64,000 bases of DNA from a virus (IMGVR_UViG_3300028197_001695:32001-96000); one strand, 5' to 3'. Shown: positions 13,934 to 21,317, counted from the stretch's first letter. Translations and numbers: made by a program. Notes: generated from the letters alone by a model not told the origin.

Positions 13934-14278
13934 ATGAAAAACACCACTACCACTACCACTACCCGCTTCGATCACGCCCTCTATGGCCTTGGAGAACAAG
14001 CATTAAAGCGCAAGCTTACCAATCGCGTTGTGACTTACCTCAATGAAGGCGAGTCTACAGTTAAGGCTGACGGGGAGCGTCAGTTAGTAATCCAAAAAGA
14101 TTTTGTGGATGGCTTTGCCAAAGGTACGGGTCGTCGCTACATCCAAGGATATGTTGCAGACCTCGACGATGGGGGTAAGATCAAGCCCCGCACCCTGCAC
14201 GTTGCAGGGATCAGCGAAGTGAAAGGTCGCTTGGCCACCGCTTGGGCCTTGGCCATGTCAGTCTATAAGAAAATCTAG
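13934..14278 (+). CDS. Early hypothetical protein
   Basis: 114 aa, own promoter, followed by a terminator. Confidence 0.75.
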   Translation: MKNTTTTTTTRFDHALYGLGEQALKRKLTNRVVTYLNEGESTVKADGERQLVIQKDFVDGFAKGTGRRYIQGYVADLDDGGKIKPRTLHVAGISEVKGRLATAWALAMSVYKKI

Positions 14279-14299
14279 TTTCTGTGTGTGTGTTATTGG

Positions 14300-14336
14300 C
14301 CCGTCAGTCTCTGCGGAGGCTGGCGGGTTTTCTTTT
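14300..14336 (+). terminator. Intrinsic terminator
   Basis: CCCGTCAGTCTC-TGCG-GAGGCTGGCGGG then TTTTCTTTT. Confidence 0.8.
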
Positions 14337-14446
14337 GCGGCTGGTCCCTTAGGATGAGGGTGTCACCTCATCTTAAAATAAAAAATAAAAGTGTCAAGCG
14401 TTTTACCTAAAAAAAAGTGAAATAAAATAATTAAAAAAAAGCCTCC

Positions 14447-14521
14447 TAAGTCGTTGAGTCTCAAGGAGTTAGGACGACGCGCCCCGCCCCCGCCCGTAAC
14501 TCGTTGAATACAAGTGAGTTA
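14447..14521. repeat. 75-bp tripartite element, copy 1
   Basis: TAAGTCGTTG-AGTCT-CAAGGAGTTA / 25-bp GC spacer / TAACTCGTTG-AATAC-AAGTGAGTTA. Confidence 0.9.
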
Positions 14522-14662
14522 CAAAGGTTTTTTCTATACCATAATCGCGAGGCAATGCAAGCATTAAAACAAAAAAATAAACCTGTCTGACAACTTAAAA
14601 AAAAATCATTTAATATGCAAAAAGAGCTTTTAATACACTCTAATCTGTGCTAAAATACACGC

Positions 14663-14938
14663 ATGACAACGAACAAAGAACACCAGTCAGCAAACTACAA
14701 TAGCAGCGTAACTTGGGATGATGGCCGCACAGTTAAATTCAACGAATACTTTGAGGTCGAGGGCTTCACCAAAGTCCTTTCTGTTTCTCCTTCTGAATAC
14801 TCTATAGAAGAAAACCTTAAGCAGCGCAAGGCTTTAGGCGGTGGCAATTCTTATGGCTACCGTTACAAGTCTATGCAGAGAGAAGAGTGGTATGTAGACT
14901 TCGAGGCAAAAGCTTTCTGGTCTTCTGACAACTGCTAA
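14663..14938 (+). CDS. Early hypothetical protein
   Basis: 91 aa, leaderless promoter. Confidence 0.75.
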   Translation: MTTNKEHQSANYNSSVTWDDGRTVKFNEYFEVEGFTKVLSVSPSEYSIEENLKQRKALGGGNSYGYRYKSMQREEWYVDFEAKAFWSSDNC

Positions 14939-14993
14939 AAAAAAAGAATAAAAAACCCTTGCACAGAATTAAAAAATAAACTATACTTCCCAC

Positions 14994-15185
14994 ATGACCA
15001 AGACAAACACCACCGAACGAACCGACCTAGCGAGATTCTTCAAAGAGCGCAACGCAGCAAGCGATATGCGTTTAGAGATCTCCTATCTCACTGGCCTTGC
15101 AAAATACGATAACCCTGAGATCTCAGAGAGACTTGAGAAGATTCTCGAAAAACATGACCAAGAGAGAGAACAGAACTGGCTTTAA
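14994..15185 (+). CDS. Early hypothetical protein
   Basis: 63 aa, leaderless promoter. Confidence 0.7.
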   Translation: MTKTNTTERTDLARFFKERNAASDMRLEISYLTGLAKYDNPEISERLEKILEKHDQEREQNWL

Positions 15186-15218
15186 TTCACCCGCACCCAA
15201 ACACTAACAAAAAAAATT

Positions 15219-15554
15219 ATGAATCACCGTTTAAACTACCTAAAAAACTTCGTTTCCATCGTAATGGTCACTCATCTTGCTGTGCTCGCCATCTTCGGCT
15301 TGTTGGCATACTTCGTTGGCTTACCTCAAGCCATTGACAACATAGGAGGATGGTATGAAACAAAAGCGAATGGAGAGGTATACTATCATGCGTATAACTT
15401 CCTTCACTTCATGGCTCTCACTTACCTCCCTGCTATGGTGCTGGCTCCTTGCATCACTGTAATCGACTGGATCAATGACGCACCCGCAAGACGCAAGCTC
15501 AAGCGCACACCTAACACAATCACAGGAAAAGAATTAGTTGACATAAAACTCTAA
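15219..15554 (+). CDS. Early membrane protein
   Basis: 111 aa with two hydrophobic segments. Confidence 0.7.
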   Translation: MNHRLNYLKNFVSIVMVTHLAVLAIFGLLAYFVGLPQAIDNIGGWYETKANGEVYYHAYNFLHFMALTYLPAMVLAPCITVIDWINDAPARRKLKRTPNTITGKELVDIKL

Positions 15555-15596
15555 AATAATCTTTGCAATAAACTCAAAATACACTATACTAACATC

Positions 15597-15950
15597 ATGA
15601 CCGTTAAGAAACCAGCATTCATCTACTCCGTAATTGTTAAAGCCCTCAAAGACTGTCGCTTGAGAGAAGATCACGCCAAATTAGAAGATCCATCAATTGA
15701 CAACTACACTGAAGCTGTAATCATTGATATGTGCAGGGCAGCAGTTGATAATAATCGCGACATCCGTGACTTTCGCGCAGTGTGCGAGGAAACACTAAAG
15801 GTGATCCTCCGCTTGCGTAGAGATTCAATACCAATGATCGGACCGACTTGTCATAATAATCTCGTCAAGGAAGGTCTCATGATCGAAAGCGATGATCTTG
15901 AGTCGCGCCCCAAGGAGATGCTTGGCGCAGCATTCACTAAAAATAATTAA
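15597..15950 (+). CDS. Early hypothetical protein
   Basis: 117 aa, leaderless promoter. Confidence 0.75.
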   Translation: MTVKKPAFIYSVIVKALKDCRLREDHAKLEDPSIDNYTEAVIIDMCRAAVDNNRDIRDFRAVCEETLKVILRLRRDSIPMIGPTCHNNLVKEGLMIESDDLESRPKEMLGAAFTKNN

Positions 15951-16004
15951 AAAAACATTTAAAAAGGGCTTGCATCTAATTCTTTTCTGGAGTATACTAT
16001 CGGC

Positions 16005-16238
16005 ATGGCAACAATAACAGCAGACCAGTTAGCACTATTCGGATATGAAGCGGCCCTCAGAGGAGATGAGAGCGCGACTTGTCCAACCTCTTACCTTGGG
16101 TATGTAATCCCAGACGTATTCCCCGACGGGGAATCAGCTCAGGCAGTTTGGCGGGTAGCCTACCGTGATGGCGTAGAGTGTCGCGCAACCTACGAGGTAG
16201 AAGGCAGACAAGACGCAGCGCGAGACTGGCAAGACTAG
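16005..16238 (+). CDS. Early protein, weakly ribosome-modulation-factor-like
   Basis: GYEAALRG...CP...W...AYRDG resembles the RMF pattern GYxAGxxG...CPY...W..GW. Confidence 0.45.
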   Translation: MATITADQLALFGYEAALRGDESATCPTSYLGYVIPDVFPDGESAQAVWRVAYRDGVECRATYEVEGRQDAARDWQD

Positions 16239-16258
16239 CCGCTTCCCGCACTCCCCGC

Positions 16259-16286
16259 AAGGCTCCCGAAAGGGAGCTTTTTTTTT
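16259..16286 (+). terminator. Intrinsic terminator
   Basis: GCTCCC-GAAA-GGGAGC plus T9. Confidence 0.9.
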
Positions 16287-16345
16287 GCTTTTGTGCCTTT
16301 TTTAGCTTTACATCCCGAAAAAATCATTTTTAAATAAAAACGTTG

Positions 16346-16464
16346 TAACTCGTTGAGTATCAAGGGGTTAGGGGCCGCGCCCCCGCCGCGCCCCGTAAGT
16401 CGTTGTTAATCAGTGACTTAGAGCGTTTTTGATGAACTTTAACTCATTGAGTACCAGTGGCTTA
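16346..16464. repeat. 75-bp tripartite element, copy 2, with a third palindrome
   Basis: TAACTCGTTG-AGTAT-CAAGGGGTTA (16346) / 25-bp all-GC spacer / TAAGTCGTTG-TTAAT-CAGTGACTTA (16396); extra site TAACTCATTG-AGTAC-CAGTGGCTTA at 16440-16464. Confidence 0.9.
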
Positions 16465-16470
16465 TCTCTT

Positions 16471-16498
16471 ATAGATCTGGGCCTATAGATCTGGGCCT
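16471..16498 (+). repeat. Perfect 14-bp tandem repeat
   Basis: ATAGATCTGGGCCT x2, followed by degenerate TATTTGG-type copies. Confidence 0.85.
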
Positions 16499-16725
16499 AT
16501 ATATTTGGCTTATTTGCTTTTAACCTTAGTGACCTTAGTGCATTATTTGCTTAAATATCTGGCGATGTTTGTCAAGTTTATTTGCAAAAATATTTGGCAT
16601 TGTTGGCCCAAAAAAAAATCACTTTAAACGCAAAAAAGGTATTGCGCTTCATAAAAAAATACTTTAGACTCTCACCAGTTCAGAGGCAGTTCTCTGACAA
16701 TAACCAACTAGAAACTACTACTACC

Positions 16726-17523
16726 ATGAAAAACCTAATCTACTCATCCAATAAAGTCAGCTATGATCAACTCAAAGAAGTTGAAAAGCCTGAGCCTATG
16801 GGTTCGCGTCACTTCCCAATCGACCATCACGAGTTGGTCGATATCGCGAAGCGCGAATTACGAGGCGCAGGTTTTGAGGTCGTGCAAGAGGAGCACGGAC
16901 TTTCCGAGAAAGGTATGAATTGCTTTTCTGGTTTTGCTATCCGCAAGGAAGACATTGAGAACAAAGACCGCGAGCTTGTCTTCGGTCTTCGGAACTCTCA
17001 CAATCAAAAGTTCGCTAGTTCTGTGGCGGTTGGCTCTTCGATGCTTGTTTGCGAGAATCTTTGCTTCTCTTCTGACATTACCCTGTCACGCAAGCACACC
17101 CGCAACATTTTTCAGGATCTCCCTCTCGTTATGGGTGAGGCGATTGGGTCTATTCAAAAGACTTGGAAAAATGAAGGTAAGCGCATCGAGACTTACAAAA
17201 ATACCCAAGCTGATGAGATCGAGGTAATCAATCAGCTAATCAAAGCTGGCTTGATCAAGCCCACCAAGATTGAAAAATTCTTGGATCTTGTTCAGAATGG
17301 CGGGGTCGATGTCAACGGCACAAAGGGAGCCTTCCACGAACATCGCGGAACACTCTGGAACATCTTCAACGCTGTTACAGAATCCTACAAGGATTTGACT
17401 GCTAACAATGTCATGCACCTCCCACGCATGACAATGCAGACTCAAAGTATTCTTGACAGGGTCGCAAGCCCCTCTTTAATTACTGCGGAAGATAAAAATT
17501 CAGCCCTAGTGCTTTCTGCTTAA
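16726..17523 (+). CDS. DUF932-family (phage/plasmid-like) protein
   Basis: GLRNSHNQKFASSVAVG...LVCEN...RKHT motif. The TTG start at 16582 lies upstream of the promoter, so ATG 16726 is preferred. Confidence 0.75.
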   Translation: MKNLIYSSNKVSYDQLKEVEKPEPMGSRHFPIDHHELVDIAKRELRGAGFEVVQEEHGLSEKGMNCFSGFAIRKEDIENKDRELVFGLRNSHNQKFASSVAVGSSMLVCENLCFSSDITLSRKHTRNIFQDLPLVMGEAIGSIQKTWKNEGKRIETYKNTQADEIEVINQLIKAGLIKPTKIEKFLDLVQNGGVDVNGTKGAFHEHRGTLWNIFNAVTESYKDLTANNVMHLPRMTMQTQSILDRVASPSLITAEDKNSALVLSA

Positions 17524-17540
17524 ATTTCCTTGACATAGCA

Positions 17541-17580
17541 AGCCCCGTCCCCTCTGCATGGGGGGCGGGGTTTTTCTTTT
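17541..17580 (+). terminator. Intrinsic terminator
   Basis: GCCCCGTCCCC...GGGGGCGGGG plus T-tract. Confidence 0.8.
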
Positions 17581-17602
17581 GTCAATAATAAAAAAAACGC
17601 TC

Positions 17603-17677
17603 TAAGTCGTTGAGTATCAATGAGTTAGGGGCCAGCCCCCCGCCGCGCCCCGTAACTCCTTATCAATCAGTGACTTA
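17603..17677. repeat. 75-bp tripartite element, copy 3
   Basis: TAAGTCGTTG-AGTAT-CAATGAGTTA / 25-bp GC spacer / TAACTCCTTA-TCAAT-CAGTGACTTA. Confidence 0.9.
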
Positions 17678-17789
17678 CGACGATTGTTTCCATATCACAA
17701 AAAACTAAGAGTGCAAGCGCAAATTAAAATAATAAAAAACATTAAAAAAGCCTTGTCTCGCATAAAAATCCTGTCACAATACTTTCGTT

Positions 17790-18140
17790 ATGGGATTAGA
17801 TCAAAATGCATATAGACAGGACTCCAACGGGGAAGATGTAGAACTCGCCACTTGGAGAAAGCACAACGCCTTGCAAGGCTGGATGGAAAAACTCTGGACT
17901 CTCAAAACGGGAAAGCCAGCAAATGAATTGAATTGTGAGGTCATGCAATTGACTGCGGAGGATTTAGAAAGTCTGTGGGCAGTGGTTAAAGCTGACGATT
18001 TGCCAGTAACGCAAGGTTTCTTTTTCGGTGCTGATAGCAGTCAGGATGAAACAAGGAAAGAAAAGGATCTTCGGTTTGTTGATGATGCTCTAAAGGCCAT
18101 TGATGATGGGGAAAAAGTTTTTTATTCTTGCTGGTGGTAA
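17790..18140 (+). CDS. Conserved phage early protein
   Basis: MGLDQ...WRKHNALQGWM...LPVTQGFFFG...FYSCWW; a pattern I recognise from aquatic phages. Confidence 0.75.
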   Translation: MGLDQNAYRQDSNGEDVELATWRKHNALQGWMEKLWTLKTGKPANELNCEVMQLTAEDLESLWAVVKADDLPVTQGFFFGADSSQDETRKEKDLRFVDDALKAIDDGEKVFYSCWW

Positions 18141-18164
18141 ATCTTTACCCAATAATTAAACACT

Positions 18165-18869
18165 ATGAAATTACTTAATCAAGGCAATGCCAAAACACTC
18201 AAGGGAGAAAAGGTTGGATTCCGCACGTTCGGTCTCCACCTTTCCCCTGCTACTAAATCAGGATACAACGTCTGCCAATGGGCAAGCGCGGGATGTCGTG
18301 CCGCTTGTTTAGATACAGCGGGGCGCGGTTGTATGTCCAACGTGCAAAATTCTAGAATCGCTAAAACTCAAAGGTTCTTCAAAGATAACTTTGGCTTCAT
18401 GTCGGATCTTCGAATTGAAATCGGTAAGGCTATCAAAAGCGCGGCAAGAAAAAGTCTTACTCCTTGTTTTCGTCTTAACCTTACAAGCGATATCCCTTGG
18501 GAGAATATGAAAAAGGGCGGTAAGACAAGTGTGATTGAAGAGTTCCCAAATGTGAATTTCTACGATTACACTAAAGGGTTTTATAGAATGAGGGCTTGGC
18601 TTGATGGCAAAATGCCTGACAACTACCATCTTACCTTTTCTCGCAGTGAGGAGACTAGTGATAACAAAATGAAAACAATCCTTGAGTTAGGAGGCAACGT
18701 CGCCGTTGTCTTCCGTGGTTCACTTCCTAAAACTTATCTTGGCTTTCCCGTCGTCGATGGTGACGAGAATGATCTGCGCTTCAAAGATAAAAAGGGCGTG
18801 ATCGTTGGATTGGTCGAGAAAGGTCTTGCAAAGAAAGACGAAACAGGTTTTGTTGTGGAGCCAAAATGA
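18165..18869 (+). CDS. Gene product 88 (GP88)-family protein
   Basis: LHLSPA...NVCQWASAGCRAACLDTAGRG, FRLNLTSDIPW, FYDYTK, YHLTFSRSE, VDGDENDLRF. Confidence 0.7.
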   Translation: MKLLNQGNAKTLKGEKVGFRTFGLHLSPATKSGYNVCQWASAGCRAACLDTAGRGCMSNVQNSRIAKTQRFFKDNFGFMSDLRIEIGKAIKSAARKSLTPCFRLNLTSDIPWENMKKGGKTSVIEEFPNVNFYDYTKGFYRMRAWLDGKMPDNYHLTFSRSEETSDNKMKTILELGGNVAVVFRGSLPKTYLGFPVVDGDENDLRFKDKKGVIVGLVEKGLAKKDETGFVVEPK

Positions 18870-18940
18870 TCAAAGGAGAATTAGAAACAGCGATAGTGCT
18901 TATAATGACGATTCTCGCCCTAATATTCAAAAAAAGATAA
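18866..18940 (+). CDS. 24-aa membrane peptide (not in ORF track)
   Basis: ATGA overlap with upstream stop; MIKGELETAIVLIMTILALIFKKR; the next gene starts 1 nt after its stop. Confidence 0.5.
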   Translation: MIKGELETAIVLIMTILALIFKKR

Positions 18941-18941
18941 A

Positions 18942-19163
18942 ATGCAGCAAAAAAACATTACTTACAGTGGAATGCCCGACAAGGCATATCGGGAAATCGT
19001 AAAGCAAGCGACAGGCTCAGGCCATTGCAACGTTTACCCAAAGAGGTTATCAAACCAAGTAAGCGAAGCTTGCGATGATTTCTTTAAGTCGAGGAATATA
19101 AAATATGGTTCCTCTTGGTTTCATAAACAAGCAGATAGGAAACAAGAACAAGCAAAAAGATGA
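18942..19163 (+). CDS. Hypothetical protein
   Basis: 73 aa in a tightly packed operon. Confidence 0.6.
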   Translation: MQQKNITYSGMPDKAYREIVKQATGSGHCNVYPKRLSNQVSEACDDFFKSRNIKYGSSWFHKQADRKQEQAKR

Positions 19164-19402
19164 ACCAAACACCAACAGTTAAATTGACAGGAGTATTCCC
19201 TAAAACATTTAGAGCAACTAAGTGTGAGACGGGGAGAGCAGATTGCAACTTTGAATATACTGACGAAAAGAAACAAGTTTTCTTTGAAGTGTGCTTACAT
19301 GGAGCGGTTTCACTGCATGAACATTTCACAGAGCTAGGTTATACAGAATTGGCCCCAAAATTAGAATTCCCAACTTGGCATCCTAACTACAAAAAAAGCT
19401 AA
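19160..19402 (+). CDS. Hypothetical protein
   Basis: 80 aa, ATGA overlap. Confidence 0.6.
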   Translation: MNQTPTVKLTGVFPKTFRATKCETGRADCNFEYTDEKKQVFFEVCLHGAVSLHEHFTELGYTELAPKLEFPTWHPNYKKS

Positions 19403-19406
19403 AACT

Positions 19407-19589
19407 ATGACAATAGAGGTAGAAAGAAAAGAAGTTTACGGTAATACCCTAACTTATGTAAAAAAAGAATCTGTCAGGAATTCTATAAAGAAACTAACAG
19501 GAAGAAAAACTTTAACTCACTATGACATTGAGGCTCTAAAAGAGTTGGGCTTTATCTTAGTCATTGAACAAGTAACAGAAAGAATTTAA
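19407..19589 (+). CDS. Hypothetical protein
   Basis: 60 aa; VYGNTLTY...LTGRKTLT...IEALKELG is a small-phage-protein pattern. Confidence 0.65.
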   Translation: MTIEVERKEVYGNTLTYVKKESVRNSIKKLTGRKTLTHYDIEALKELGFILVIEQVTERI

Positions 19590-19592
19590 ATT

Positions 19593-19883
19593 ATGATTAA
19601 AGAACACACAATGCCGTGCATCCACATGAATGGATCGGGCGAAGATAGTCTACGCAGACAATACAATGAATTGTTTTGCGCTGTAAGCGACGCTCAAGTC
19701 AAACTCCTTTATGATACAGACTTCCATGAGAGAGATTACTACCCTCTTGGGGATGAAGCTTGGGATAAAGCTTATCAAGAAAGAGAAGAAGTGAAGGAAG
19801 CCATGAACAAGGTTTACCAGTATGTCAAGCAGCATATGCACTTTCTCGACTATGGAAAGGAGCCGTTGCCAGATGAAAGTTAA
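19593..19883 (+). CDS. Hypothetical protein
   Basis: 96 aa; PCIHMNGS...FHERDYYP. Confidence 0.7.
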   Translation: MIKEHTMPCIHMNGSGEDSLRRQYNELFCAVSDAQVKLLYDTDFHERDYYPLGDEAWDKAYQEREEVKEAMNKVYQYVKQHMHFLDYGKEPLPDES

Positions 19884-19895
19884 ATAAAATGCTCC

Positions 19896-19970
19896 TAACT
19901 CGTTGACTATCAGCGAGTTAGAGGGCCGCGCCCCGCCGCGCCTCCTAAGTCCTTACTAATCAGTGGGTTA
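19896..19970. repeat. 75-bp tripartite element, copy 4
   Basis: TAACTCGTTG-ACTAT-CAGCGAGTTA / 25-bp GC spacer / TAAGTCCTTA-CTAAT-CAGTGGGTTA. Confidence 0.9.
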
Positions 19971-20149
19971 CAGTGCTTTTTTTCAATCCCTTTCACTTGC
20001 TGATAATTAGTTAGTTGTGTAATCGGGTTTTGTTTATTTGTTGCTCACCAAAAAAACGGGCATCTGAGGCTTGCTTTTATTTGCTTATATTTGGAATAAA
20101 ATTCGACATCTTTGCTTGCTTTATTACTATACACTACTATAATGAACAC

Positions 20150-20266
20150 ATGAGAGATCGAGAACGCGCTTTCTTTGAGAATGTAGTATTTACCTGCTTA
20201 GTTTTATTAAGTTGTATTATTTCAACCTTCGGGGTTTACAAATTTTTTGGTTTATTTGTTAACTGA
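20150..20266 (+). CDS. 38-aa membrane peptide, leaderless
   Basis: TTGCTT-16-TATAAT-6-ATG; one hydrophobic helix; followed by a hairpin at 20287-20324. Confidence 0.65.
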   Translation: MRDRERAFFENVVFTCLVLLSCIISTFGVYKFFGLFVN

Positions 20267-20419
20267 TCTTGCTGACATAACATAATACCCGTCCTCCTTT
20301 TTTTGGTTTCTAAGGGGGGCGGGTTCTTTATTTGGCACTTATTTAGCCCAAAATCCTACAACCTTGGGGCTTATTATTTAGAATAATATTTGGCAAACTT
20401 GCCTCTTCTAGCAGTTAGC

Positions 20420-20515
20420 TCATGTATGACCACAGCCAATTAAACAAAGAATAATCAGTATTCCACTACAAGCTACTAGCCCCAAAAGTACCAATTTATT
20501 TATTTTATGTTGCAT
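20420..20515 (-). CDS. 31-aa hydrophobic, possibly lipidated peptide (not in ORF track)
   Basis: MQHKINKLVLLGLVACSGILIILCLIGCGHT; ATG 9 nt after a GTGTAA motif. Confidence 0.5.
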   Translation of the reverse strand: MQHKINKLVLLGLVACSGILIILCLIGCGHT

Positions 20516-20542
20516 GCAATAATATTACACAGTAAGCGGGGC

Positions 20543-20731
20543 TTATTTGTTTTTATTCTTTTTTGCCTGTAGCTTCTTTATCTTACTATAGAATTTTCCT
20601 TTATTTGAGTTATCAACCATGCAGTCTCCAAAGGGTTGCTTATTATTTAATCCAAATATTTCTCTTAGCCTCTCTGTTTGTGCCTCATCTAGATTTACAT
20701 CGAATTTATTTTGTTCGCTATCTTCTTGCAT
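20543..20731 (-). CDS. Hypothetical protein
   Basis: 62 aa; TATAAT 5 nt before the ATG. Confidence 0.55.
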   Translation of the reverse strand: MQEDSEQNKFDVNLDEAQTERLREIFGLNNKQPFGDCMVDNSNKGKFYSKIKKLQAKKNKNK

Positions 20732-20780
20732 ATAGTATTATATAAAAAGCAGCAGGGCGGGGCTATTGTTATTTGAAAAA

Positions 20781-20831
20781 ATATTTGGTAACCTTCTGCA
20801 ACCTTTGGTAACCTTTTGCAACCTTTTGGTA
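20781..20831 (+). repeat. 10/20-bp periodic tandem repeat
   Basis: atatttggta-accttctgca-acctttggta-accttttgca-accttttggt-a. Confidence 0.85.
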
Positions 20832-20837
20832 TCGCGC

Positions 20838-20865
20838 TTGACATTACTAGCTTATTTGCTATGAT
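20838..20865 (+). promoter_or_regulatory. Near-consensus sigma70 promoter with no convincing downstream gene
   Basis: TTGACA-16-TATGAT, pointing into T-rich non-coding DNA. Confidence 0.55.
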
Positions 20866-21317
20866 GTAACCAAATTGTGCTTGGTTTGGGGCCAGCTTTT
20901 ATTTGCTTTTATTTGCTTAAAGTTACAGAAACGGGCTTTTATTTGGTTTTTTTTAGAAAAATAGGTGTTTGCTTTGTGTCTGACTAGGGTAAAATATTAC
21001 TTATTATAAAAAAATATTACAAGCGGGGCTAGTTTTATAAAATTTTGTTTGCTCAGAGGCCATTTGGGTTGCTTTTGTTTGTTTTTGTTGGCTATTCGGG
21101 GGCAAAATATACCAAGCTTACCATTATTTATTATTTAGAGCAACAGCCACTATCCTATTATCCATTCCTATATCCATTAATATCTGGTATAACCCTTATT
21201 TTATCTTGTTTTCTTATTGTATTTGTATTATGTATTACTCTATGTATTACCTTGTGGTATACTGTATAAAAAGGAATAAAAACTAAGGTATAAATAAAAA
21301 GAATAAATTATTATAAT

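Follow-up and report, generated by a model that had tools for sequence, protein, structure and literature searches.

Four 75-bp elements (E1 to E4) split an island of small early genes into cassettes in a 64,000-nt stretch of viral DNA, here called the window, which comprises bases 32001-96000 of the 118,005-bp, 37.4% G+C record IMGVR_UViG_3300028197_001695. Each element consists of two 25-bp palindromes, P1 and P2, on either side of a 25-bp GC spacer. The explanation we favor, with a probability of roughly 0.45, is that this three-part module of double-stranded DNA (dsDNA), composed of two symmetric candidate sites for a bending protein and a CCCCGCC box (C-box), acts as a boundary between early transcription units and, secondarily, as a junction for cassette exchange. 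Three features go beyond the original prediction made from this stretch, namely that the palindrome matches the consensus of integration host factor (IHF), that the CCCCGCC box has a fixed position, and that bacterial chromosomes contain the palindrome as well. A full-text literature search for the palindrome string returned no published description of the element (the matches were unrelated by title or abstract), and the literature search yielded no description of IHF palindromic repeats in phage early regions.

Architecture and distribution of the elements

The original prediction placed four 25+25+25-bp elements at 14447, 16346, 17603 and 19896 and an extra palindrome at 16440, and the sequence bears this out:

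14447-14471, palindrome P1 of E1, TAAGTCGTTGA GTC TCAAGGAGTTA
14472-14496, GC spacer of E1, 25 bp, with CCCCGCC at 14482-14488 (spacer positions 11-17)
14497-14521, palindrome P2 of E1, degenerate
16346-16370, palindrome P1 of E2
16371-16395, GC spacer of E2, with CCCCGCC at 16381-16387
16396-16420, palindrome P2 of E2
16440-16464, third palindrome of E2, following a 19-bp AT-rich gap
17603-17627, palindrome P1 of E3
17628-17652, GC spacer of E3, with CCCCGCC at 17638-17644
17653-17677, palindrome P2 of E3, degenerate, with an orthologous form in relatives
19896-19920, palindrome P1 of E4, starting 12 nt past the stop codon of gene p
19921-19945, GC spacer of E4, with CCCCGCC at 19931-19937
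19946-19970, palindrome P2 of E4, degenerate, with an orthologous form in L043, L044, L013 and L074

A pattern scan allowing up to three mismatches gave 10 strand matches in the window against 0.02 expected from shuffles, and a weight-matrix scan of the whole 118,005-bp genome recovered these nine palindromes only. The spacers (84-100% G+C) are just as distinctive, as the genome contains only four 23-mers with at least 20 G+C and these are the four spacers. The copies had been described as drifting in sequence. They do vary, but the spacers do not drift freely: CCCCGCC is fixed at positions 11-17 in all four, on the plus strand, and the heptamer occurs only once elsewhere in the 118-kb genome. 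P2 can be described as a degenerate but conserved form of P1 whose arms have 3-6 mismatches, individual palindrome copies have recognizable orthologues in other phages, and the triple-palindrome arrangement of E2 is found upstream of gene J in relatives too.

The predicted A-runs to the left and T-runs to the right are present at the elements. Since these flanks are symmetric and the open reading frames (ORFs) are small, neither orients the elements, and the whole layout of A-run, palindrome, GC core, palindrome and T-run is pseudo-symmetric over about 110 bp. Such an architecture, placed at the ends of transcription units, would be compatible with a strong site at which a DNA enzyme of two-fold symmetry, such as DNA gyrase, acts on the GC core and relieves supercoiling between heavily transcribed cassettes. 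Supercoil relief of this type has been proposed for BIME-2 (a bacterial interspersed mosaic element) and for the strong gyrase site of phage Mu. Sequence evidence for a topoisomerase site is absent here, the C-box is asymmetric, and the strongly conserved palindrome positions would be left unexplained, all of which makes this explanation very remote.

The palindrome-GC spacer-palindrome module was found by exact-pattern scan in at least 120 IMG/VR loci. Among the matches listed, element-bearing contigs run up to 85-148 kb, and their samples are, as we take it from the sample numbers, marine and freshwater. The same matches contain 308 unique palindrome-spacer-palindrome units. The fixed spacer length seen in the window is kept within lineages but differs between them: 166 of the 308 have a spacer of 25 bp, another 56 one of 23-28 bp, and there are 33 with 17 bp and 21 with 33 bp. 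Lineage-specific lengths among the IMG/VR loci listed step by 8 (9, 17, 25, 33 and 41-43 bp), which may be chance because there are few independent lineages. Spacers are homologous within a genome and diverged between genomes, with GC-richness and the C-box retained. CCCCGC is present in 142 of 205 spacers compared to 57 expected (2.5-fold), with a peak at position 11 as in the window copies. The C-box is also oriented: its orientation is sense in 68 spacers and antisense in 25, and all four window copies are sense. In two relatives (records of 107-109 kb) the sites are confined to one stretch of at most 7 kb. Some low-GC contigs carry tandem palindromes without a GC spacer, and the palindrome is therefore the basic unit.

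The palindrome as a duplex-DNA site

We compiled a frequency matrix from 476 unique 25-mers, taken from the IMG/VR loci listed (at least 120) and from this genome. The two arms of the palindrome do not covary. Positions 4 and 22 (S/S) are non-complementary in 39% of sites, and Watson-Crick pairs there number 249 against approximately 214 expected under independence with symmetrized frequencies; the corresponding counts are 211 versus 182 at 7/19 and 281 versus 301 at 8/18, all of them near the values for independent positions. Among 154 elements oriented by the direction of homologous early genes, no bias of G-U over A-C was seen on the sense strand. Spacers of 25 nt are no more prone to fold than their shuffled versions (mean z -0.2), and a real GC hairpin appears only in the lineage variant with the 33-nt spacer. 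By these sequence statistics, the conserved unit is a sequence read on duplex DNA and not a structure; because the arms do not covary, it is best described as a double-stranded protein site. The earlier suggestion of paired sites for a dimeric protein gains from this, with spacers that fold like shuffles and a spacing that is kept within lineages.

It had also been suggested that the whole 75-mer can fold as one hairpin. RNA folding predicts one long hairpin in the case of E2 and E3, whereas E1 and E4 each break up into separate hairpins, and the minimum-energy folds of the four window copies disagree with each other, although they are more stable than shuffles (z -3.6 to -4.6). With no covariation, no G-U bias and inconsistent folds, we rejected a hairpin or RNA structure as the conserved feature. 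Additionally, a terminator scan flags the second palindrome of E1 and of E2, with three G-C pairs each. By sequence form, an identity as intrinsic terminators was rejected, since the stems are the AT-rich palindromes, the GC part is unpaired and the U-run is offset. G-quadruplexes or i-motifs were likewise discarded (four runs of at least two G in 92 spacers versus 110 in shuffles, and four runs of at least three G in none), as was a miniature CRISPR array, given that P1 is not identical to P2 and that the spacers, GC tracts with a common CCCCGCC box, are homologous to one another.

A further feature bears on what may happen at the level of RNA. A promoter-like site points into the element from its downstream side in 44 of 151 oriented elements (29%), against 3% of random windows. 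It takes the form TTGACA or CTTGCA, 13 nt, TGn and then TATGGG, TATAGA or TATGGA, with the hexamer ending exactly 11 nt before the palindrome. Two of the window elements have one:

14533-14560, minus strand, inward promoter-like site at E1: (C)TTGCAT, 13 nt, TGG, TATAGA; 11 nt before P2
17689-17716, minus strand, inward promoter-like site at E3: (C)TTGCAC, 13 nt, TGA, TATGGA; 11 nt before P2

The predicted transcript would start about 4 nt before the palindrome and run through the element to a U-run made from the left A-tract, and the site could be an operator-controlled promoter or the source of a small RNA. One explanation built on these observations is that the element works as RNA, be it as a bidirectional terminator, as a stabilizer of the 3' ends of early mRNAs, or as a small RNA of about 95 nt that starts at the inward promoter and is ended by the far-side U-run. 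The fixed 11-nt offset of the inward sites, the A-run and T-run flanks and the stability of the RNA folds are all consistent with such a role, and E4 and several orthologous copies lie 12 nt past a stop codon with no other terminator. The lack of compensatory changes in the arms (including the S:S mismatches at 4/22) and of a G-U bias argues in the opposite direction. So does the disagreement among the predicted folds, together with a GC spacer that is not self-complementary and a U-run that begins 5-6 nt past the stem. Canonical terminators already stand before E1, E2 and E3, and no Rfam match was found over 12.5-21.5 kb. We consider a role of this kind improbable.

The sequence of the palindrome resembles a particular type of protein site. 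The symmetrized matrix of the viral palindromes reads T1 A2 A3 S4 T5 C6 n7 Y8 T9 G10 A11 t12 W13, or TAA-sTCn-TTGA-N3-TCAA-nGAs-TTA for the full site. This corresponds to YAAnnnnTTGATW, which is the IHF consensus WATCAAnnnnTTR in its complementary form, and it is present on either strand with the central W in common. The viral matrix agrees with the IHF consensus at every defined position on both strands, and 70% of centers have the full WATCAA on at least one side. Known IHF sites consist of WATCAA, a TTR 4 bp away and an optional A-tract, and are recognized by shape with no major-groove readout; they contain two AA steps 9 bp apart, at which the arm prolines intercalate from the minor groove (PMC1874591). 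In the palindrome, the T8T9 and A17A18 steps are also 9 bp apart, and T9 and A17 are conserved at nearly 100%. We infer that degeneracy at S and W is what would be expected of a minor-groove or shape reader that is blind to the difference.

The same palindrome is found outside phages. In its strict form it occurs in at least 120 bacterial loci, including Fibrobacter, Saprospiraceae, Microscillaceae, Lentisphaeria and Akkermansia, and five bacterial genomes contain 149, 25, 5, 4 and 2 copies whereas the reversed control gives none. The relaxed motif TAA-N4-TTGA-N3-TCAA-N4-TTA reaches 2,181 copies in a Microscillaceae metagenome-assembled genome (MAG; G053, loci L241-L260) and 274 in a Saprospiraceae MAG (G054), followed by 14 in an Akkermansia, 6 in a Lentisphaeria and 5 in a Fibrobacter MAG, again with no copies of the reversed control. 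Within the Microscillaceae family (Cytophagales), 14 of 15 genomes have the relaxed motif, with 1-58 copies in 13 of the 14 beyond G053. In the 231 kb sampled of G053, 77 of 80 sites are intergenic and sites are depleted between convergent genes. The form found there, TAA-N4-TTGAT-W-ATCAA-N4-TTA, occurs about once per 3 kb and has the center TWA and N4 tracts that are non-complementary. Much like this form, bacterial copies keep the IHF-defined positions and vary the N4. In 12 species of Fibrobacter, a strict palindrome is retained between two divergent genes, the same pair in every species, at a distance of about 150-240 nt from either gene; one of them encodes a very large Ig/cadherin-repeat protein and the other a 136-aa protein:

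L128, L144, L153, L166, L174, L177, L186, L192, L201, L225, L233 and L237, Fibrobacter loci with the conserved site

With hundreds to thousands of copies against zero in the control, nearly all of them intergenic, the sequences indicate that something cellular reads this mirror motif, in the manner of an architectural protein. The Cytophagales core TGATAATCA is identical to the center of the E. coli Fur box. A Fur box was nevertheless rejected, since no iron regulon lies beside 17 sites in a genome related to G053, where the adjoining genes share no function, and the N3 at the center of the phage sites is variable. A separate case is the Verrucomicrobiales MAG G001, in which contigs C38 and C145 carry full double-palindrome elements (locus L195). 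These are probably binned phage contigs and give a possible hint at the host.

Early-region cassettes and their rearrangement

The elements are confined to an island of small plus-strand genes at 13.0-20.3 kb of the window. Its genes, named a to q, are arranged as a b c d (E1) e f g h i (E2 and third palindrome) J (E3) k L m n o p (E4) q. In relatives the homologues of these genes are permuted, gained and lost, with elements at the borders. For example, the order is J q (E) n o p (E) k L (E) in L043, d (E) b c (E) i in L072, and a e f .. (E) d i (E) in L015, while gene J is flanked by elements on both sides in nearly all relatives. In L053 (L053:2574-2907) and L067, the d-i intergenic region contains a mini-cassette of promoter, ORF and element between the d terminator and the i promoter, which are adjacent in L015, L035 and L076. 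The small inserted ORF has a p-like C-terminus, and its reading frame seems to continue across P1 and the GC spacer as far as a stop codon within P2.

Breaks of synteny are associated with the elements. In relatives, 57 of 63 window junctions with an element are broken, as against 58 of 84 without one (odds ratio 4.3, p = 0.002; the samples are not independent). Of the 115 broken junctions, 79 lie within 450 nt of an element in the relative. The early region is fluid everywhere among the relatives. The proposal that the elements are recombination sites that shuffle early-gene cassettes gains partial support from the permuted cassettes and the more frequent breaks, but no recombinase was found to go with it and many breakpoints have no element. 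The lack of a recombinase, first noted for the window, extends to the whole 118-kb record (PF00589 and PF00239 absent), and no Y1 transposase was found in the phage. We rejected a tyrosine or serine recombination site because there is no cognate gene, and because the arms are 3 bp apart within a palindrome and 25 bp apart between palindromes, against an expected crossover spacer of 2-8 bp. Homologous exchange at the conserved 25-mers is likelier than site-specific recombination, as no recombinase was found and many breakpoints fall at element-free junctions.

It could also be that recombination is the primary purpose of the module, which by analogy with the promoter-early stem-loop (PeSL) cassettes discussed below would let exchange between copies move, duplicate and excise early cassettes. 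CCCCGCC/GGCGGGG might then be Chi-like, or a cleavage site between bending sites as in attP. The variable order and content of cassettes with elements at their boundaries, the excess of breaks at element junctions, the mini-cassette inserted between d and i, and the orientation of the C-box are all in line with this. We nonetheless think it quite unlikely to be the primary function, given the lack of a tyrosine or serine recombinase or Y1 transposase and the breaks at element-free junctions. No target-site duplications were seen, and a Chi identity is pure speculation. Certain palindrome positions are also under strong purifying selection in hundreds of phages, which suggests a binding function and not homology alone.

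The transcription signals and the genes with assigned features surround the elements as follows:

13271, 13523, 13895, 14958, 15562, 15969 and 20115, plus strand, host-type promoters CTTGCA-N17-TATACT/TAAACT, with ATG 6-7 nt past the -10 box
22417 and 25515, minus strand, host-type promoters of the same form, with ATG 6-7 nt past the -10 box
14298-14339, plus strand, intrinsic terminator upstream of E1, ending the upstream cassette
16259-16289, plus strand, intrinsic terminator upstream of E2
17540-17582, plus strand, intrinsic terminator upstream of E3
13934-14278, plus strand, protein d, no family match
16582-17523, plus strand, gene J, DUF932 protein
18165-18869, plus strand, gene L, GP88 family (PF17338)

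Three of the elements had been placed just after intrinsic terminators, which is true of E1, E2 and E3, whose terminators can also be given the shorter bounds 14298-14329, 16259-16280 and 17540-17573; E4 has no terminator before it and begins directly behind gene p. The 75-bp core contains no promoter; those nearby are 75-150 bp downstream of it or are directed inward from beyond its edges. The early genes, single or in short groups, are headed by the host-type promoter CTTGCA-N17-TATACT, and as the ATG follows only 6-7 nt after the -10 box, early mRNAs are probably leaderless. Protein d is the most widely conserved early protein adjoining elements. Its AlphaFold model (predicted local distance difference test score 78) resembles a WYL/Sm-like barrel and has no helix-turn-helix (HTH). 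The resemblance is weak and is to stand-alone barrels in regulators of defence, with Foldseek matches to BrxR, PafBC and DriD (E 0.02-0.1) and CapW likewise weakly similar. On the basis of the model, protein d may be an anti-defence decoy.

Other sequence features were observed in the island. At 16466-16600 of the window, upstream of J, two copies of the direct repeat TATAGATCTGGGCC precede a series of TATTTG/TTATTTGC boxes. These boxes also occupy a non-coding stretch of 33.6% G+C at 20.0-21.3 kb (20060-21190) and recur ahead of J in relatives, and they could represent iterons or another class of promoter. A promoter-like site, TTGACA-16-TAAGAT at 14370-14397 on the minus strand, is directed leftwards into a hairpin at 14348-14373 and the terminator of gene d, and may drive a short antisense RNA. 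As for the phage itself, which is uncultured and marine, CheckV gives the record a completeness of 89% and no terminal repeat was detected. Neither near nor distant DNA matches revealed a close relative among annotated phages, and TerL has 22-26% identity to that of Bacillus and Staphylococcus phages.

A proposed boundary and its known counterparts

How might the module work? In the explanation we favor, two 25-bp dyad sites flank a stiff, hard-to-melt 25-bp GC segment with the central CCCCGCC box. Each palindrome would be a symmetric site of the IHF/HU (DNABII) type, bound by a dimeric bending protein that reads the minor groove. No gene of the HU/IHF fold was found in the phage and five relatives (six records, with one relative rated 100% complete), so the candidate protein would most likely come from the cell. 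It would bend the DNA sharply at two points 50 bp apart, on either side of a rigid core, and build a fixed nucleoprotein boundary where each early transcription unit ends and ahead of the promoter that follows. This boundary could insulate or shape the neighboring strong host-type promoters. The 25-mers differ very little from copy to copy or between co-infecting relatives and could therefore double as homologous-exchange junctions that shuffle the cassettes. The other earlier suggestion, that the elements are signals for DNA injection or packaging, found no support.

Several observations weigh against this explanation. First, the center-to-center spacing varies by lineage (42, 48-53 or 58 bp), and hence no single three-dimensional geometry is conserved. 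The distances from the center of P2 to the next start codon, the likely transcription start, are 154, 125 and 192 bp, with no helical register (n = 3). Some elements directly follow a stop codon without another terminator (E4, and gene i in relatives), and a role in termination fits these too. Second, the phage sites keep sTCg within the NNNN, although canonical IHF needs no such bases, and the flanking A-run is about 18-25 bp from the dyad center, further out than in the lambda H' site, whose A-tract is 9-14 bp from the center. Third, the motif is sporadic, with 0-2 copies in 60 other Bacteroidota and 0-1 copies in 40 genomes of the Verrucomicrobiales family to which the MAG with element-bearing contigs belongs. 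Fourth, the two genomes richest in the motif, G053 and G054 (MAGs that may be incomplete), have no clear HU/IHF protein: PF00216 matches are weak and partial or missing and TIGR00987 gives none, nor does PF18291 in G053.

The last of these findings suggests that the binder may not be a canonical DNABII protein. Among five carrier MAGs, the cut-off for IHF-alpha is passed by a Rhodobacteraceae MAG only, and other HU-family matches in candidate hosts fall below it. From the sites themselves, a plausible cellular binder is IHF-like in site logic and not demonstrably IHF. Tentatively, and with more doubt than confidence, we suggest that the mirror motif TAA-N4-TTGA-W3-TCAA-N4-TTA is the site of an unrecognized sequence-specific nucleoid-associated protein, used sporadically in bacteria of the Fibrobacterota-Chlorobiota-Bacteroidota (FCB) and Planctomycetota-Verrucomicrobiota-Chlamydiota (PVC) groups with up to about 2,000 intergenic copies per genome. 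Such a protein would share the site logic of IHF and need not be a canonical HU/IHF. A large group of uncultured aquatic phages would exploit it through paired 'super-sites' around a CCCCGCC core, as insulating and recombinogenic boundaries of early cassettes.

Some of the same observations could be attributed to a regulator encoded by the phage. Here the palindromes, and perhaps the C-box, would be operators of a dimeric or tetrameric protein outside the HU/IHF family that shuts off or times early transcription, possibly by looping among the four elements, as the original prediction had also considered. Such operators would fit the dsDNA character of the sites and their confinement to the early region, and the palindrome lies at about +4 to +29 of the inward promoter-like sites, a typical operator position. 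The retention of sTCg in phage sites and not in bacterial copies suggests a more specific reader, and the motif is essentially absent from the chromosomes of the candidate host family. Yet the phage offers no candidate. We found no repressor for looping operators and no DNA-binding Pfam or PHROG family among the early proteins, and the most conserved neighbor, protein d, is modeled as a WYL/Sm-like barrel without HTH. The conserved blocks are 6-7 bp apart and would alternate between helix faces, which is presumably unusual for HTH dimers, and the same core motif is abundant in bacterial chromosomes. We regard a phage regulator as unlikely, though less so than the other alternatives.

If the boundary explanation is correct, one rigid cis-element organizes the early region in a large and diverse set of uncultured 85-150-kb aquatic phages. 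It would then give a handle on how phage host-takeover genes are run and reshuffled, and a sequence tag with which to find early regions in metagenomes. The 25-mer would also be a bait for an unrecognized DNA-binding protein with hundreds to thousands of chromosomal sites in some Bacteroidota, and the palindromes would represent natural symmetric, high-information IHF-type sites, of a kind not known in the E. coli paradigm.

Known systems share parts of this design. Lambda attP is a core flanked by the IHF sites H2 and H', and much like it the module has a short specific central core with IHF-type bending sites (here predicted) on both sides; it differs in having no integrase and no arm-type sites, four copies in a lytic-looking genome, and much shorter flanks. 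The repetitive IHF-binding palindromic (RIP) elements or BIME-1 of enterobacteria have the order REP (repetitive extragenic palindrome), IHF site, REP. They are likewise composite extragenic repeats that combine palindromic units with an IHF-type site after operons. The architecture is inverted here, with candidate bending sites flanking a GC core, and the repeats belong to a phage and not a chromosome, with no GTAG-type REP hairpin and no REP-associated tyrosine transposase (RAYT) in the phage. A REP/BIME with RAYT was accordingly rejected (no GTAG/CGTC tag, no covariation and no Y1_Tnp in the phage records). TF1, an HU-family protein of Bacillus phage SPO1, binds near early promoters, and its sites resemble ours in that bending-protein site logic is concentrated in a phage early region. 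They differ from the palindromic pairs with GC spacer described here, for which no HU-fold gene was found in the phage and five relatives.

At the level of the single site, the closest comparison is with the IHF sites of E. coli and lambda (WATCAAnnnnTTR, PMC1874591), which agree with the palindrome in all defined positions, in the spacing of the kink steps and in S/W degeneracy. The phage sites stand apart by their perfect dyad symmetry, with the consensus on both strands, by the additional conserved sTCg in the NNNN, and by an A-run about 10 bp, or about one helical turn, further out. At the level of the whole element, the comparison is with PeSL cassettes of the T4-type phages RB49 and phi1, in which a sigma70-like promoter is combined with a stem-loop terminator (Arbiol et al. 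2010, PMC2839356). Like the PeSLs, the elements are short and conserved repeats between genes, are restricted to an early region that is plastic, and lie at the borders of small cassettes; related phages differ there by insertions, deletions and replacements, and the shuffling is read as homologous exchange in both. Judged by sequence, the elements described here mark modular shuffling as PeSLs do, but they have no internal sigma70-type promoter and no terminating stem-loop. Promoter and terminator lie outside the 75-bp core, which is made instead of two non-covarying palindromes, candidate protein sites, around a GC spacer. By analogy, the elements may thus be viewed as a variant of PeSL-like boundary repeats or of extragenic repeats that bear IHF sites.

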